DNA of 8,341 nucleotides from a virus (taxonomy: Duplodnaviria > Heunggongvirae > Uroviricota > Caudoviricetes). Of this stretch, positions 1-8,334 are shown one piece after another (the stretch's first letter is position 1; each line of letters begins with the position of its first letter). Location: the IMG/VR virus record IMGVR_UViG_2681813265_000006. One strand, given 5' to 3'. The notes under the pieces are model-generated. The model ran no database searches. It was not told the DNA's origin and saw only the letters and a program-made list of their open reading frames with translations. Made by a program: the position numbers and the translations under genes.

Positions 1-37
1 AACAAATGGTAGTGTCCGCTATTGCCAGTACACCTCA
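1..37. repeat. IR-L: left arm of a 37-bp perfect inverted repeat (partner at 8298..8334)
   Basis: Positions 1..37 are the exact reverse complement of 8298..8334. Each arm carries 5 nt of leader, an ATG and the first 10 codons (MVVSAIASTP) of an ORF reading into the window. Identity breaks at 38 / 8297; the arms may extend beyond the window edges. Confidence 0.9.
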
Positions 38-1022: not shown

Positions 1023-1207
1023 CCGCTAACTGATACCCGGCTAACAGTCTGGCGTTTTCTTTTTCAGCAACGGGAAAGCAACAACCACCACACCCGCCAC
1101 CAGCACACCGTCAGCCAGCACTGACATTATCCGGCTGCTGCAATGCCATTCACAAAAACAGTAAGCAATCACTTTTTACCGTAACAGGTGATAATCCAGA
1201 TATGTAT

Positions 1208-1534
1208 CTACCCCAGATGAGTAATCCGAAGTTCATCCATACCACAGGTCCTGGCTATTCTGTTGTACTCCTGAACAAGAGCAAATAATTCTGAATTAGC
1301 AACCATGAACTCATCGCAAACCCTCTGTATAGCATCACTATTCAGAATAATAACGTCTCTTCCCGAAAGACGATCAGGAGTACAGAACAAAACTGTCAAA
1401 CGGCTGAAGGCCTTTGCTCGTGCTGCATTGACTATATCAATACGCTGCCTAAGGATGAAACACCCCGACGCCTCATCAATATTCACTCTACCCACACCAT
1501 ATGAATGATAAATATTTAATGCTGAAAAAACCAT
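1208..1534 (-). CDS. Hypothetical protein, 108 aa from ATG 1534 (117 aa if the TTG at 1561 is used); unrecognised cargo ORF downstream of tRNA copy 1
   Basis: Longest ORF in the 650-bp block (1023..1671) that is absent from the second module copy. Weak SD. The TTG-start version has a hydrophobic N-terminus (IECLLYGLMVFSALNIY). No family recognised. Confidence 0.3.
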   Translation of the reverse strand: MVFSALNIYHSYGVGRVNIDEASGCFILRQRIDIVNAARAKAFSRLTVLFCTPDRLSGRDVIILNSDAIQRVCDEFMVANSELFALVQEYNRIARTCGMDELRITHLG

Positions 1535-1671
1535 TAGACCGTATAACAAACACTCAATCAATACTTAACAGAACTTTTATTTTTGACAAACATAAAATAT
1601 TTTCAACAATATCCTGAGCCAGGTATATTTCAGTATAAGGCTCTGCCGGAAGGAATCTGGAAGAATGAATA

Positions 1672-2666: not shown

Positions 2667-3725
2667 TCATCCGTTCTGGCTGACTAAATCCTGTACTTCC
2701 CGAACCGTCTGCTCAAAACGTTCAGTCTCCAGCTCAACGCCAATTGCACGACGCCCGAGCGCCAGTGCCGCTTTCACTGTCGAACCCAACCCCATGAAAA
2801 AATCTGCAATCAGGTCACCCGGACGACTGCTAGCGCTGATTATCTGCTGCAGCATTTCTGCCGGTTTTTCGCACGGATGTTTCCCGGGATAGAACTGCAC
2901 CGGTTTATGCGTCCACACATCGGTATACGGCACCTGCACCGTCACGCCAAAATACCGCCGCAGATGTTTATATTCACTCAGCAGCTCCGCATACTGCCGG
3001 TTCAGTGAGGTATACGTATCCACCAGCTGGTGGTGGAGCTTTTCCAGTTCACCACGCCGATGCTTCTCTTCTGCCACCCGGGCAAACAGCGCCTGTAATT
3101 TCAGATAATCGCTTTCATTCGGCAACTGCCACTGACCGGCACTGAACCAGTGCGACACCATGTTTTTCTTTCCTGTGGCATCTGCAATCTGTTTTGCCGT
3201 TATCCCCAGGGCAGCTCGCGCATCACGAAAGTAAGAAATCAGCGGGGCCATCACATGCTGTTTCAGTGCACTGCCCTTCGCCGCATACCCGGCATCTTTC
3301 GGACGATACGGCCCCTGATAATGTTCCGCGAACAGAATGCGCTCTGTGGCGGGGAAATACGCCCGCAGGCTTTCCTTGTTGCATCCGTTCCAGCGTCCGG
3401 ACGGCTTCGCCCAGATAATATGGTTCAGCACACTGAAGCGTTCACGCATCATGATTTCGATATCAGATGCCAGGCGATGACCACAGAACAGGTAAAGACT
3501 TCCGGCAGGTTTCAGCACCCGCCAGAACTGCGCCAGACACTGGTCCAGCCACTTCAGGTAATCATCGTCGCCCTTCCACTGGTTATCCCAGCCCTCAGGC
3601 TTCACTTTAAAGTACGGCGGGTCCGTGACTATCAGGTCAACAGAATTTTCGGGTAACGACCGGATAAATTCCAGGCAGTCGGCGTTGATTAACTCACAAC
3701 TGGATATTTTTACAGTATTAAGCAT
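2667..3725 (-). CDS. Orphan DNA N6-adenine methyltransferase, beta class, prophage-encoded (352 aa)
   Basis: DLIVTDPPYF (motif IV, DPPY) near the N-terminus and FFMGLGSTVKAALALGRRAIGVE (FxGxG motif I, SAM-binding) near the C-terminus; the order IV then I indicates the beta class. The central region has an HTH-like segment (GITAKQIADATGKK...). No restriction endonuclease partner is present in the window. Confidence 0.8.
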   Translation of the reverse strand: MLNTVKISSCELINADCLEFIRSLPENSVDLIVTDPPYFKVKPEGWDNQWKGDDDYLKWLDQCLAQFWRVLKPAGSLYLFCGHRLASDIEIMMRERFSVLNHIIWAKPSGRWNGCNKESLRAYFPATERILFAEHYQGPYRPKDAGYAAKGSALKQHVMAPLISYFRDARAALGITAKQIADATGKKNMVSHWFSAGQWQLPNESDYLKLQALFARVAEEKHRRGELEKLHHQLVDTYTSLNRQYAELLSEYKHLRRYFGVTVQVPYTDVWTHKPVQFYPGKHPCEKPAEMLQQIISASSRPGDLIADFFMGLGSTVKAALALGRRAIGVELETERFEQTVREVQDLVSQNG

Positions 3726-3860: not shown

Positions 3861-3889
3861 CAAATAAAAAAGCCTTCACTGCGGAAGGC
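3861..3889 (-). terminator. Rho-independent terminator downstream of the small HTH ORF
   Basis: Minus-strand RNA GCCUUC-CGCAGU-GAAGGC followed by UUUUUUAUUU. The HTH ORF stop codon lies inside the hairpin. Confidence 0.6.
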
Positions 3890-4073
3890 GTCTGTAACAA
3901 CCGAACTGATAGTCTGCCAGACCCGCCATAACCAGCTGGGTCAGTATTAACTGGCAGCGTTCGCGTGAAAGGTAAGTATTCTGCGCTATCTCCCCGACTG
4001 TCGCCGGTTCGGTAACGCTTAATTCATTAAACACCACTCTGGCGGTTTCTGTCATATCCTGCTGTTTTAGCAT
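3876..4073 (-). CDS. Small (65 aa) putative winged-helix / HTH DNA-binding protein
   Basis: Good SD (AAGGA, 6-nt spacer). The segment TVGEIAQNTYLSRERCQLILTQLVMAGLADYQ resembles the recognition helix and wing of small wHTH regulators. First gene of the HTH-methyltransferase cassette. Confidence 0.45.
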   Translation of the reverse strand: MLKQQDMTETARVVFNELSVTEPATVGEIAQNTYLSRERCQLILTQLVMAGLADYQFGCYRRLPQ

Positions 4074-4192
4074 GTCTTTTCCTTTTCCGGTTAACGTGAC
4101 ACACCAATAACTCTTGTCGAAAAAGCCAGCAAGCTGAAAGACAGGTATTCACCGCCACCAGCGCGTTTACTGTACTGACGCGATTTCAGTCA

Positions 4193-4217
4193 TAAAAAAC
4201 CCGCTCGGCGGCGGGTT
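4193..4217 (-). terminator. tR' late terminator ending a short PR' transcript of about 65 nt
   Basis: Minus-strand hairpin AACCCGC-cgccga-GCGGGUU followed by UUUUUUAU, about 40 nt downstream of the predicted PR' start. Confidence 0.75.
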
Positions 4218-4252
4218 GTAGAAACTCTTCTAACGTCAGGCATAAAACGCCC

Positions 4253-4292
4253 ATCGTTATGACGAATTTACCACAGATTCCGGAAAAATCAA
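4253..4292 (-). promoter_or_regulatory. Late promoter PR' with sigma70-dependent pause element (qut region)
   Basis: -35 TTGATT (4287..4292), 16-nt spacer, extended -10 TGGTAAATT (4265..4273), then AACGAT at about +1..+6 (4253..4258). This is the same -10-like pause-inducing hexamer as in lambda PR'. Located immediately downstream of the Q stop codon. Confidence 0.7.
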
Positions 4293-4297
4293 CCTTG

Positions 4298-5119
4298 TTA
4301 CCTAGTTACCTTTTTTAACTGCCGCTCAGCCCATGCTTCTTCAATATCAAACCGGGTCACCAGCGCATCATAAAATTTCTTAACTGTTTTTTCCCATGAC
4401 GCGCGTGTTATCTGGTTTGTCACCTCGCATATAGCATTAAATGCCTCCGTTGATGGTAGTCTTTCATAGCCACGACCACCACAACGCTGGCAGTCTCTGA
4501 TAACAGGCATACCACGTTTTACCGACTCTTCACGATGAATGGCGACACCACGCCCACGGCAATCCTTACAGGCGGTGGAAACCTCACCCTTTCCGCCACA
4601 CTCCGGACAGGCAACTTTTACCACCTCCCTGACTTTTTTCCATTCTTCCCAGTAAGACGGATACACACCTTTCGTACACTTTGCCCATACCGGCGGCTTA
4701 CCATCCGGATACTGGATCTTGTTTGTAAAAACCTCGCTTTCAATAAATTTTTTTCCGTGACAGCAGGGGCACTGTTTTTTGCTCGCCGCGCTACGGGCAT
4801 AATCTTCAAACGCATACGAAGCCATAATACGCATCACTGCCGGTTTTATTTCTGCCGGGAGTTTTCTTAACGCCGCCACGCGATCACACCGACTGAGTGC
4901 ATATTCTGTCAGCAATTCTGTTGCCCGCTCTCTGTCATTCATACTAATGCCCATTTTCCCAAGGAACGCAGAAACCCCCATCTCAGCCCGATTCTGTGTC
5001 ATGCCCTGCGCGGCCATCACATCAGTGATACTCAGCGCATCTTTCGACGTTGAGGCCGATGCATCAGTCAGGCCGGGGGATTTTGGGGAGTAGTATTTCG
5101 GTAAATCTTCCAGTTTCAT
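4298..5119 (-). CDS. Q: Late-gene antiterminator Q (273 aa)
   Basis: Position immediately upstream of a lambda-like PR'/tR' unit. Several CxxC pairs (CPCC, CPEC, CKDC, CQRC) consistent with Q-family zinc fingers. ATGA overlap with rusA. Confidence 0.8.
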   Translation of the reverse strand: MKLEDLPKYYSPKSPGLTDASASTSKDALSITDVMAAQGMTQNRAEMGVSAFLGKMGISMNDRERATELLTEYALSRCDRVAALRKLPAEIKPAVMRIMASYAFEDYARSAASKKQCPCCHGKKFIESEVFTNKIQYPDGKPPVWAKCTKGVYPSYWEEWKKVREVVKVACPECGGKGEVSTACKDCRGRGVAIHREESVKRGMPVIRDCQRCGGRGYERLPSTEAFNAICEVTNQITRASWEKTVKKFYDALVTRFDIEEAWAERQLKKVTR

Positions 5120-5496
5120 TTTTTGACCTGCCCTTCAAGCATTATGGGATAAATCTTCACCCCCAGACGTCCACCAGATACTGGCTGAGCACGAACGATA
5201 TTGATTTCATCAAACTGCTCATCGTCCATTAGCAACCCCGCATGCGTCAGCGCATCCAGCGGCGCTTTCAGAATATTGTCCAGGTCACGGCGGCGCTTAT
5301 CCGGTGGTTCTGCAATAATTTTTATTGCCAACCTTCCGGACAGGCTTAATTTCAGCCGCTGCTGGCGAACAATAAGCGCCACTGCCCGGCGATAACGCTC
5401 CCCGGCTTTTGATACAAAATATGTGCTGCCACGACGACGCCAGTAAGTGTTCACCGTCGGCGGGTAAGGTAAAACAAATTCTATGCGCTCGGTCAT
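5116..5496 (-). CDS. rusA: Holliday-junction resolvase RusA (126 aa)
   Basis: N-terminus MTERIEFVLPYPPTVNTYW and the acidic catalytic region RRRDLDNILKAPLDAL...LLMDDEQ match RusA. Its start abuts the stop of the upstream ORF (TAAATG). Confidence 0.85.
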   Translation of the reverse strand: MTERIEFVLPYPPTVNTYWRRRGSTYFVSKAGERYRRAVALIVRQQRLKLSLSGRLAIKIIAEPPDKRRRDLDNILKAPLDALTHAGLLMDDEQFDEINIVRAQPVSGGRLGVKIYPIMLEGQVKK

Positions 5497-6555
5497 TTAT
5501 GCTTTCCACTTCAGAACACCCGAATTTCTCGCGTGCATTAAAAAACGAATCAGCAACAACAGCTGACTGCCGTGTTTCTCTTCAAAATCTTTTACTCCGG
5601 CATGTAGTTCGTTACGGCATTTACGGCATAACGGAATAACAAACAAATCATCAGCCTTTGTTCCCATCCCTCCCAGTCCATGACCAATGATGTGATGCGG
5701 ATCATCTGCCTGATTGCCACACGTCATGCATTTCTGCGTTTTTACCCAGCGCGTGTATACAGGCATCTCTTCCCGTTGTGATTTCTGGCGCTGGAGATAC
5801 TGAGCCGGTGACTCCGGATCAACGGCAATGCTGACCACCGTCTTTTCCTGTGGTGGGTTCTGTTGCTGGTGGACGTGAGGCAGTAACGCAATATTTTTTG
5901 TGCGCTGCTTCAGTATGCTGGTGGCTGTCTGCTCTCCCGGTATGATGTCGCTTTCACTGTACACAGAGCGAATTTTTTCCGCACGCAACCCCAGCGAACG
6001 ACGTAATACCGCTTCCGGTAGCGCGTCCGCCACCTGATTGCGGACCGCCCACCAGGATAATTCAGCCAGAGATAATTCACGCTCCTGCGTACCGCTTATT
6101 GCGTGACCGATGACGTCAATCATCCATGCTGACAGGTTTTGATGAGCAAGTTGCTCGAGTGATTCGGATGTCTGGTCACGCAGCTGGTTGTCGCAGTGCC
6201 AGCACAACACCATTGCGCCGGTACCATAACGGTGAATGACGGTTTCGCTGTGATGATAATCGCCGTGTGGCCACTGGCAGGATTTAATATGGCGCAACAG
6301 CCAGTCAGACAATGCACCAGCACCACCAGCAGCACGAATCACCCGTGCGTTACTGAAAAACGGCAGCAATGTTTTGTCTTCCACCAGCGGCTGGCGAGCG
6401 GCAGGAACGACCCCGGACGGCAGATTACGCATGCTTTTTGGTTCCGGCTCCACCAGTATTCTGCCGTTATGGAATGCTGACATTGATTCACGGCCTGGCT
6501 TAACGATAACCAGACCGAGTTCCGGTACCAGAACAGGTCGAAGTAATACCCGCAC
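5497..6555 (-). CDS. Prophage nin-region protein, YdfU-like (DUF968) with a C-terminal Cys/His-rich HNH-like motif
   Basis: Synteny hokD-rem-(this ORF)-Q as in the Qin prophage. C-terminal CMTCGNQADDPHH...CRKCRNELH resembles NinG/HNH zinc motifs. The start is ambiguous: GTG 6555 has GGAGG 4 nt upstream; the alternative ATG at 6483 gives 328 aa. Confidence 0.55.
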   Translation of the reverse strand: MRVLLRPVLVPELGLVIVKPGRESMSAFHNGRILVEPEPKSMRNLPSGVVPAARQPLVEDKTLLPFFSNARVIRAAGGAGALSDWLLRHIKSCQWPHGDYHHSETVIHRYGTGAMVLCWHCDNQLRDQTSESLEQLAHQNLSAWMIDVIGHAISGTQERELSLAELSWWAVRNQVADALPEAVLRRSLGLRAEKIRSVYSESDIIPGEQTATSILKQRTKNIALLPHVHQQQNPPQEKTVVSIAVDPESPAQYLQRQKSQREEMPVYTRWVKTQKCMTCGNQADDPHHIIGHGLGGMGTKADDLFVIPLCRKCRNELHAGVKDFEEKHGSQLLLLIRFLMHARNSGVLKWKA

Positions 6556-7033: not shown

Positions 7034-7064
7034 AAATAAAAACAAAAACCCGCCGAAGCGGGTT
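7034..7064 (-). terminator. Rho-independent terminator of the hok transcript
   Basis: Minus-strand AACCCGC-UUCG-GCGGGUU followed by UUUUGUUUUUAUUUU. A GAAA-tetraloop stem-loop (plus coordinates 7104..7125) lies just after the hok stop. Confidence 0.75.
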
Positions 7065-7132
7065 AAGTGTGGGTGCATTGAGGATGCCTGACCCATCAGA
7101 GGTGGCGAGGGATTTCTCCCCCGCCTGGTCTC

Positions 7133-7288
7133 TTACTCCTCAGGTTCGTAAGCTGTGAAGACAGCGACCTCCGTCTGGCCGGTTCGAATTCGTACCTCGC
7201 AGAGGTCTTTCCTCGTTACCAGTGCCGTCACTATGACGGTTAAACAGATGACGATCAGGGCGATTAACATCGCCTTTTGCTGCTTCAT
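7133..7288 (-). CDS. hokD: Hok-family type I toxin, HokD/RelF-like (51 aa)
   Basis: Translation MKQQKAMLIALIVICLTVIVTALVTRKDLCEVRIRTGQTEVAVFTAYEPEE matches HokD as I remember it. SD AAGGAG lies 9 nt upstream. The ORF-track version (7133..7345) adds an in-frame 19-codon extension. Confidence 0.85.
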   Translation of the reverse strand: MKQQKAMLIALIVICLTVIVTALVTRKDLCEVRIRTGQTEVAVFTAYEPEE

Positions 7289-7499
7289 AGCCTGCTTCTC
7301 CTTGCCTTTCGGCACGTAAGAGGCTAACCTAGATTTGCCGTTCATAGATTGAGCCTCAGATTAATGTTAAGCGTCTTGCCGGACGCGTAATGTTAACTGG
7401 GGCTTTTCTCTATCTGCCTTTTGGTGTTCATGCCTGAGACAGATAGCCTCAAGCACCCGCTGCAATTCTACTTAACTCTCCTTTTCCCGCAAACCGTTT

Positions 7500-8098: not shown

Positions 8099-8329
8099 TT
8101 AACCCGCAGTGCTTTCAACTGATGAGGGGAACAAAATCTTTTCATCAAACCCTGCATTCATATCATGAACAGCAACACACCAATCCATCGACGAACGATT
8201 ATCAAGAGCCTCCATGATTTCATCCATGCGGCGTAGGTCATACAGGTAAATGCTTTTATCGCCAATGGTGTAAAAGCCAATTTTTTTCGGTGATGGATGA
8301 GGTGTACTGGCAATAGCGGACACTACCAT
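8099..8329 (-). CDS. Hypothetical protein A (at least 76 aa), first gene of the coupled A-B-C-D operon; its start lies within IR-R
   Basis: The ORF reads from the ATG at 8329. There is no in-frame stop in the 4 codons upstream before the window edge, so the true start may lie outside the window. No family recognised. Confidence 0.45.
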   Translation of the reverse strand: MVVSAIASTPHPSPKKIGFYTIGDKSIYLYDLRRMDEIMEALDNRSSMDWCVAVHDMNAGFDEKILFPSSVESTAG

Positions 8330-8334
8330 TTGTT
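8298..8334. repeat. IR-R: right arm of the 37-bp perfect inverted repeat
   Basis: Exact reverse complement of 1..37; contains the ATG (8327..8329, minus strand) of CDS 8099..8329. Confidence 0.9.

Follow-up and report, generated by a model that had tools for sequence, protein, structure and literature searches.

In lambdoid prophages, the slot behind the antiterminator gene Q and the phage tRNA genes holds the genes that alter the host most, among them stx, regulators of acid resistance and small RNAs (sRNAs); in Shiga toxin-encoding (Stx) phages, stx is expressed there by Q-dependent read-through. The window analyzed here, a stretch of 8,341 nucleotides (nt) from the Caudoviricetes virus record IMGVR_UViG_2681813265_000006 of IMG/VR, is, in minus-strand orientation, the region of late regulation of a Qin-like lambdoid prophage, and it carries in this slot a block of about 650 bp (positions 1,023 to 1,671) with two minus-strand open reading frames (ORFs). 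An earlier, sequence-only reading of the window had proposed the two as cargo at the position equivalent to that of stx.

The limits of the slot have been given as Q, PR'-tR' and ileZ-argN-argO-type tRNA genes on the 5' side and an STnc100/PasD sRNA, an esterase and the holin on the 3' side (bioRxiv 10.64898/2026.05.13.724894). Two sets of described proteins bear most closely on the block. The first comprises PHROG 2873 and PHROG 4827, both families of unknown function. The second comprises the Tci proteins, whose 'tellurite/colicin/cell division' label (P1 record) is given by homology only, and for whose member DUF3927/TciB no functional study was found in the literature. Citrobacter prophages and the phages JLK-2012 and P1 have intact tciA-tciB pairs. 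JLK-2012 carries, in this order, Q, tRNAs, tciA (TerB-like, 143 amino acids (aa)), tciB (54 aa, overlapping tciA) and the STnc100 region. As judged from the comparisons below, the block contains a 92-aa gene that belongs to an existing, uncharacterized phage protein family, next to the remnant of a known one, and we consider this gene model and the relic interpretation, taken together, very probable. The block is a common accessory gene cassette of a known type, located in the hot-spot that extends from Q to the lysis genes, and no new toxin locus.

The block and its distribution

The late leader is present twice in tandem in the window, the Q 3' end, PR'-like region, tR', tRNA cluster and STnc100 sRNA recurring with 91-99% identity (repeat pairs 1955-2135 and 4185-4373, 1659-1964 and 2364-2666, 786-975 and 2125-2300; Table 1). 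The first of these pairs, whose member 4185-4373 lies just 3' of the intact Q, corresponds to direct repeats D3 and D5 (96-99% identical), and the prophage has one intact Q gene versus two PR'-tR' units. In module 1, the tRNA-Arg gene with its flank (1659-1779) and the repeat R2 (811-1029) are 629 nt apart, versus 9 nt for their copies in module 2 (2364-2484 and 2136-2354), where a terminator (2362-2345) lies across the junction; this repeat analysis bears out the extra ~650 bp between argO and R2 that had been pointed out in module 1 and found missing in module 2. The description of the block as an accessory insertion at an stx-equivalent site likewise holds, the block being 3' of a Q-type gene, a PR'-tR' leader and an ileZ/argN/argO-type tRNA cluster, in the slot where the Stx phages 933W and Sp5 carry stx.

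The full block, at an identity of at least 95%, is present in 1,183 of 5,426 complete E. coli genomes, and the larger ORF in its clade A form (three E. coli clades, A, B and C, are distinguished below) in ~1,185; carriers of this form include E2348/69, 55989 and O104:H4, and one deposited phage, mEp460_ev081, has the block. When clades A, B and C are taken together, a 92-aa ORF occupies the slot in ~1,300 of the 5,426 genomes, and the overall estimate for the block is 1,200-1,300 genomes. As in a moron, the block is present or absent between otherwise conserved neighbors, occurring in module 1 only of the same window, with neighbors that vary by clade. Searches for known RNA families gave no Rfam hit within the block, the hits being confined to its flanks. 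In K-12 MG1655, of which two regions were read, the iraM region matches the window just over iraM; the annotated Qin table of this strain gives cspB/cspF at the equivalent site, a locus that was not aligned to the block. We lean slightly toward the view that recombination and deletion have left the block as a mosaic in the hot-spot for accessory genes that lies between Q and the lysis genes.

The larger ORF

Both proposed ORFs are in the ORF list, the larger one at 1208-1561 (117 aa from TTG, or 108 aa from ATG 1534) and the smaller one ending at 1041. Neither product had been recognized; the larger ORF can, however, be assigned to PHROG 2873, with residues 10-117 (of 117) matching positions 1-108 over the full length (E 3.8e-70) in addition to a weak match to PHROG 4827 (E 4e-5), and the smaller to Pfam DUF3927 (95.6 bits). 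Within the larger ORF, comparative data best support 92 aa, starting at GTG 1486, as the conserved coding unit, in place of the 108- or 117-aa form. In a DNA alignment of the three clades, 279 nt are aligned without an insertion or deletion (indel) from a common GTG start, GTGAATATTGATGA, and similarity outside this coding sequence fades within ~10 nt past the stop codon and 30-80 nt before the start. Nucleotide identity between pairs of clades is 68-72%, with changes distributed over the three codon positions as ~24, 22 and 44. The ratio of non-synonymous to synonymous rates (dN/dS) is 0.25-0.27 between the three clades, with no stop codon or indel, whereas other frames have values of 0.9-1.4 or contain stop codons; the 92-aa frame is therefore conserved beyond chance.

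Sequence variation within clade A shows the same constraint. Among 73 full-length copies (IMG/VR and genomes) there are 6 synonymous and 5 non-synonymous changes (binomial P = 0.023 versus neutrality), with no stop codon and no indel, and polymorphism in the coding sequence, at 3.6 per 100 nt, is the lowest of the block, compared with 10.3 upstream (Fisher P = 5e-5 versus all flanks). The frame might nevertheless be an open one by chance, in non-coding filler whose conservation comes from recent spread of the segment, as could be argued from its absence in annotations by the NCBI Prokaryotic Genome Annotation Pipeline (PGAP) and from the fact that clade A copies are at least 99% identical, so that conservation within this clade is uninformative taken alone. 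However, the three clades have diverged by 28-32% in nucleotide sequence while the frame stayed open without indels and with a twofold excess of third-position changes, and profile searches find full-length homologues in five other genera, down to ~21% identity; this alternative is refuted, and its probability is negligible.

The sequence-only reading had given the ORF a start at 1534 or, with a hydrophobic N-terminus, at TTG 1561; these longer forms are not supported. That the real product is a protein of 108 or 117 aa, with the hydrophobic N-terminal extension acting as a membrane anchor, could be proposed on several grounds: clade A and some variants of clade B (P0014, P0015) keep the extension in frame, gene callers give 108-118 aa in many GenBank and Logan records, and the PHROG 2873 profile has a length of 108 positions. 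Yet in L003, the form most common in clade B, a frameshift disrupts the extension and leaves the 92-aa frame intact; the extension is replaced by unrelated sequence in clade C and has no counterpart in any distant homologue; and within clade A it shows 4 non-synonymous versus 1 synonymous change, plus a 1-nt deletion in one copy. The distant homologues, moreover, all begin at one position, with the motif M-x-I-N-[FI]-[DE]. Pairing of the Shine-Dalgarno (SD) sequence with the 16S rRNA tail is also stronger at GTG 1486 (-5.3 kcal/mol) than at ATG 1534 and TTG 1561 (-3.0 and -0.9 kcal/mol), the values for most homologues being -5.1 to -6.9 kcal/mol. We thus consider a membrane-anchored longer product improbable, and positions 1487-1561 are most likely a 5' leader rather than coding sequence.

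The gene has largely escaped annotation. Its clade B form (57-61% amino-acid identity, 80 genomes), which lies 90 nt behind an AraC-type regulator gene, is never annotated, and RefSeq annotates nothing beneath the larger ORF in clade A among the genomes listed; in all, RefSeq leaves the ORF unannotated in ~1,260 complete E. coli genomes (clades A and B), about a quarter. The clade C form (63% identity, 51 genomes) is annotated by PGAP as a 92-aa hypothetical protein (WP_001017777.1), and GenBank submitters often enter the larger ORF as a 108-aa hypothetical protein. Insertions of the IS3 family are found ~10 nt 5' of the start in clade B (loci L005-L009) and immediately past the stop, at window position 1206, in clade A (L044, L064), the coding frame being intact in both.

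Homologues and their surroundings

Relatives of 91-99 aa were identified by an exhaustive profile search followed by a second profile search seeded with the hits. They are found in Citrobacter, in Salmonella (sb55 of ST64B), in Morganella, Serratia and Xenorhabdus prophages and on E. coli plasmids, so that, for the larger ORF, homologues with a conserved reading frame do exist in related prophages. Their surroundings differ: the order is Q (~4.5 kb upstream), homologue, TerB/tciA, DUF3927 and holin in Citrobacter; Q, a 64-aa ORF, a methyltransferase, homologue and holin in Morganella; and Q, tRNAs, homologue and lysis genes in Serratia. In ST64B the homologue follows the lysis genes and precedes HNH and terminase, and on the E. 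coli plasmids it lies beside a tRNA-Thr remnant. Scans with two distant homologues (P0031 and P0035) for contexts in IMG/VR gave nothing.

No neighbor is universal among the loci compared. The AraC-type regulator gene was considered as a conserved neighbor and is confined to clade B, as is KilA-N to ST64B; tciAB is found in Citrobacter and as the relic here only, and the methyltransferase, although present in several lineages, is common backbone. TciC of P1, considered as a possible homologue, has 35 aa only and is unrelated. The family is a stand-alone unit within late operons.

The plasmid homologue (gene 6001-6276 in L022-L024) is 34% identical to the 92-aa protein and is carried by Rep3-type plasmids between a K88-like fimbrial operon and a cation-efflux gene, ~580 nt 3' of the tRNA-Thr remnant; plasmids seem to have captured it as a piece of phage DNA.

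Predicted fold and possible role

The 92-aa protein (10.4 kDa, isoelectric point 5.7) has no hydrophobic segment. The AlphaFold2 model, obtained with an alignment of 11 sequences (mean predicted local distance difference test score 88.6, predicted template modeling score 0.75), has helices at residues 3-34 and 50-81 joined by a conserved TPDR-x-SG loop, and it confidently predicts a soluble antiparallel two-helix hairpin. Residues R23, N64 and N75 are invariant over 21 diverse members. Searches with single sequences and with all 21 alignment members found no consistent sequence relative in Pfam, NCBIfam, PADLOC or the PDB, the best PDB profile hit (GapR/UPF0335, E 0.06) not being significant. 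When the window protein and five homologues were compared with the defense profiles of PADLOC-DB 2.0, only one homologue (P0038) gave a match, a lone weak one (E 9e-4) that covers part of a 562-position model. Nor is there any StxA- or StxB-like cargo by Pfam, NCBIfam or PDB match, the predicted fold being a helical hairpin, and the block gives no sign of a toxin function.

In a Foldseek comparison the model resembles the TraM anti-activator (PDB 2q0o_D) with a TM-score of 0.74 and an E-value of 0.41; hundreds of unrelated hairpins score equally. Because the protein is a soluble hairpin without catalytic, DNA-binding or membrane features and without an obligate partner gene, our tentative guess is that it acts by protein binding, as a small coiled-coil inhibitor or adaptor; it would then act alone on another protein. 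More speculatively, the hairpin proteins could form a new family of phage-encoded protein-binding regulators that neutralize a specific host or phage protein, a proposal that we regard as rather unlikely. In this proposal, the proteins would be produced late, either on the Q-dependent transcript or by way of a weak promoter belonging to the gene, and the target could be a defense component, a factor of lysis timing or, in clade B, where alone an AraC-type gene adjoins the hairpin gene, this PatE/Psr-type regulator, bound in a TraM-like manner.

The smaller ORF

The smaller ORF is probably a decayed tciB, as its match to PF13064 (DUF3927; cut-off 25 bits, E 1.7e-27), in which residues 2-43 correspond to positions 7-53 of 53, and a further match to phrog_1470 ('TciB-like') suggest. 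A complete DUF3927 protein has ~50-54 aa and two hydrophobic segments and is preceded by an overlapping, TerB-like tciA; neither is found here, ~28 nt of the tciA 3' end being left. Compared with tciB of JLK-2012, an 11-nt loss has taken the start, and deletions of 4 and 5 nt frameshift the first hydrophobic segment, which reads 'IAYCFCEWHC' in place of 'VALLLFLVVMVD'. The ancestral part is the second hydrophobic segment only, that is, the 28-aa peptide. PGAP gives the ORF a length of 43 aa in strain 64 and 28 aa in E2348/69, and the population sample contains 6 synonymous and 6 non-synonymous changes, with a premature stop codon in 3 copies. As cargo, the 28-aa ORF thus does not hold up, since it is a fragment of a larger disrupted gene.

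Upstream of it, alignment of the window (TCTGGATTATCACCTGTTACGGTAAAAA) with the tciA-tciB region of JLK-2012 (TCTGGAGAATCATCTGTGACGGTAAAAA) identifies the remnant of tciA, and nothing similar is found further upstream. The deletion junction lies ~10 nt past the stop codon of the 92-aa gene; therefore a single deletion, starting from a layout like that of Citrobacter, probably removed most of tciA together with the spacer and the terminator of the 92-aa gene. The ancestral order would have been hairpin gene, tciA, tciB and holin, as is still present in Citrobacter prophages. Two IMG/VR loci in which homology ends at the stop codon were considered as an intact ancestral form in E. coli; they hold an IS3-family insertion, not tciA.

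The two ORFs might instead be a functional two-gene cassette, e.g., a soluble regulator with a membrane effector, possibly a minimal version of a hairpin-TciA-TciB system: they are adjacent with no terminator between them in ~1,200 E. coli genomes, the Citrobacter homologue is directly 5' of tciA-tciB, and the 28-aa core of the peptide has no frameshift in 73 copies. However, no DUF3927 gene accompanies the homologue on plasmids or in clades B and C, Morganella, Serratia and ST64B, and in the latter five the co-occurrence of both ORFs that the sequence-only reading had proposed checking is likewise absent; conversely, JLK-2012 and P1 have an intact tciA-tciB pair without the hairpin gene. Out-of-frame deletions have, moreover, cost the peptide its first hydrophobic segment, the partner gene tciA is deleted and a premature stop codon segregates in the population. 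A functional pair is thus quite improbable. A designed two-gene cargo is likewise unsupported, the 28-aa peptide being the C-terminal hydrophobic segment of a degraded tciB and tciA being deleted to its last ~28 nt.

Expression

The 92-aa gene lies ~500 nt 3' of the second copy of the PR'-tR' leader, behind two tRNA genes, and a scan found no terminator between tR' (1987-1968) and the terminator of the STnc100 gene (816-795). We infer Q-dependent late expression of the gene: in lytic growth, Q-modified RNA polymerase would read through tR' into the tRNAs, the 92-aa gene, the tciB relic and the STnc100 sRNA. For any expression in a lysogen, the 185 AT-rich nt before the gene (the spacer together with 1487-1561, ~34% G+C) would have to provide a weak promoter. 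A single consensus promoter hit at 1606-1579 (TTGAAA-16-AAAAAT) is on a par with the shuffled expectation, and sigma-70-like hexamers can be seen by eye at 1561-1533 (TTGATT-17-TCTAAT). In scans of the window and clade C, Morganella and Serratia loci, weak consensus matches were no more frequent than in shuffled sequence.

The relatives differ from the window copy in their terminators. Five lineages have an intrinsic terminator after the stop codon (by consensus scan in clade C, Morganella and Serratia; by eye in Citrobacter and ST64B), three of the five being visibly homologous, and another lies 5' of the gene in Morganella and Serratia (scan) and in Citrobacter (by eye). In the window, no terminator of the kind expected of a moron is found between 1208 and 816. 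The gene could be a lysogenic-conversion gene, i.e., a moron in the strict sense, with its own promoter active in the repressed prophage, a benefit to the host and no dependence on Q. The terminators on both sides in Morganella, Serratia and Citrobacter and after the stop in clade C argue for such a gene, as do a TATAAT/TACAAT-like element ~35 nt 5' of the start, conserved between Serratia and Morganella (by eye), and the homologues kept intact on non-phage plasmids. In clade B, moreover, the regulator gene 90 nt upstream is of the PatE/Psr kind, and AraC-type regulators of this kind are active in lysogens (PMC10877973). Neither the window nor Morganella, however, has an above-chance promoter; in Citrobacter the start codon comes only ~50 nt after the upstream terminator; and the window copy lies directly behind the PR'-tR' leader with no terminator between. 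An autonomous gene of this kind is rather unlikely, and we retain Q-dependent expression.

Several observations weigh against our interpretation of the block as a whole. The gene starts with GTG and its SD sequence is only moderate, and PGAP calls no gene here in clades A and B. The consensus scan found no promoter above shuffled expectation in the window, and the terminator that follows the gene in its relatives is lost in the window copy. The plasmid-borne homologues argue for expression of some members outside a Q-dependent late operon and suggest that some family members have a promoter of their own. Finally, the ancestral layout is deduced from one distant lineage, Citrobacter, together with the tciA remnant.

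Prophage setting

The features of the window are collected in Table 1.

Table 1. Features of the 8,341-nt window, in the direction of late transcription
Feature	Position	Strand	Remarks
hokD/sok type I toxin-antitoxin locus	7133-7458	minus	Rfam sok 112 bits
DUF968 gene	5497-6555	minus	
rusA	5116-5496	minus	
Q-type antiterminator gene	4298-5119	minus	273 aa
PR'-like region and terminator tR'	3' of intact Q	minus	
65-aa ORF	3876-4073	minus	
N6/N4 DNA methyltransferase gene	2667-3725	minus	
tRNA cluster 2	2626-2377	minus	
Terminator, then repeat R2 copy	2362-2345; 2136-2354	minus	module 2
Second copy of Q 3' end, PR'-like promoter region and tR'	1955-2135	minus	terminator 1987-1968; directly 5' of tRNA cluster 1
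tRNA cluster 1	1924-1672	minus	
tRNA, CAT anticodon, ileZ/Ile2 type	1849-1924	minus	ARAGORN, Rfam; tRNA-Ile in PGAP; first gene of cluster 1
tRNA-Arg(UCU), argO type	1672-1748	minus	ARAGORN; Rfam tRNA 68 bits; upstream boundary of the block
AT-rich spacer between tRNA-Arg and gene	1562-1671	minus	
In-frame upstream extension	1487-1561	minus	ATG 1534, 108 aa; TTG 1561, 117 aa
92-aa protein gene	1208-1486	minus	GTG start 1486, TAG stop 1208-1210; PHROG 2873 family
tciA 3'-end remnant (TerB-like gene)	1173-1200	minus	alignment with phage JLK-2012; deletion junction just past the stop of the 92-aa gene
DUF3927/TciB remnant ORF	1041-1172	minus	43 aa from GTG 1172 or 28 aa from ATG 1127
STnc100-family sRNA gene (R2 core)	786-975	minus	Rfam RF02076 132.4 bits, gathering score 47; ends in terminator 816-795; downstream boundary of the block
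iraM paralogue	425-760	plus	NCBIfam anti-adapter IraM E 5e-48; convergent with the late operon

The tRNA genes detected by ARAGORN are of the types Met/Ile2-CAT, Arg-TCG and Arg-TCT. The Arg-TCG (argN-type) gene is intact in cluster 2 (2467-2543) and undetected in cluster 1, where the central part of the corresponding sequence (1749-1848) is replaced; PGAP likewise gives two tRNAs only at the cluster 1 site in strain 64 and E2348/69. A second STnc100-family copy at 2125-2300 scores 103.7 bits (gathering score 47), and the family is related to the PasD sRNAs of prophages of enteropathogenic E. coli (preprint, bioRxiv 10.64898/2026.05.13.724894). The iraM paralogue of the prophage is 70% identical in DNA sequence to K-12 iraM.

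Beside hokD/sok, an isrK-like hit at 7043-7124 remains below threshold (25.7 bits, gathering score 50). A 64-65-aa ORF precedes the N6/N4 DNA methyltransferase gene also in E. coli clade B and C loci, E2348/69 and Morganella (L003, L010, L032, L025), and the two look like a conserved gene pair. The ends of the window (1-37 and 8298-8334) form a perfect 37-nt inverted repeat, each arm of which opens an ORF starting MVVSAIASTP (6-122 on the plus strand, 8099-8329 on the minus strand). The left arm abuts the 5' fragment of a minus-strand DUF1737 gene that PGAP marks as truncated in a near-identical genome; repeat and truncated gene together suggest an inversion or recombination junction.

Significance and comparison with known systems

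The useful results are the corrected gene model (92 aa from GTG), the scale of the annotation gap and the diagnosis of the relic; the PHROG family and the DUF3927/Tci family were known. With this model, the ORF, whose carriers include well-studied pathogens, can be taken into account in transcriptomic, proteomic and genetic screens, and the 'DUF3927 family protein' widely annotated at this site is probably a relic. The biological pay-off hinges entirely on the function of the 92-aa protein, and the interest of the block is modest.

The block shares its position between Q and the lysis genes with stx, PatE/Psr, a TolA-like gene, nanS-p, iraM and lpxR. It differs from Shiga toxin in that it encodes a single small cytoplasmic protein without a signal peptide and with no relation to the toxin in sequence or fold. 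The likeness to TraM (PDB 2q0o) and to prefoldin-type hairpins is one of shape alone, at ~10% identity and without a significant E-value.

A closer relation exists with tciA-tciB(-tciC) of P1 and JLK-2012. The DNA of the smaller ORF is 93% identical to the 3' part of JLK-2012 tciB, and tRNA genes and a DNA methyltransferase gene are nearby, as they are in the window; in the window, however, tciA is gone save for ~28 nt, and in tciB neither the start nor the first hydrophobic segment survives. The order in P1 (L113, 16412-21008) is DNA methyltransferase (dmt), tRNA-Asn, tRNA-Thr, tciA, tciB, tciC and tRNA-Ile2, which points to a mobile 'tRNA plus tci' module that may be common to unrelated phage types.

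Closest to the 92-aa protein itself are the members of PHROG 2873 and PHROG 4827, including Sb55 of ST64B. Most of these relatives keep a downstream terminator, whereas the window copy has none and is unannotated in RefSeq; in length class, in the N-terminal motif and in their setting in the late regions of lambdoid prophages, they and the window protein are alike.

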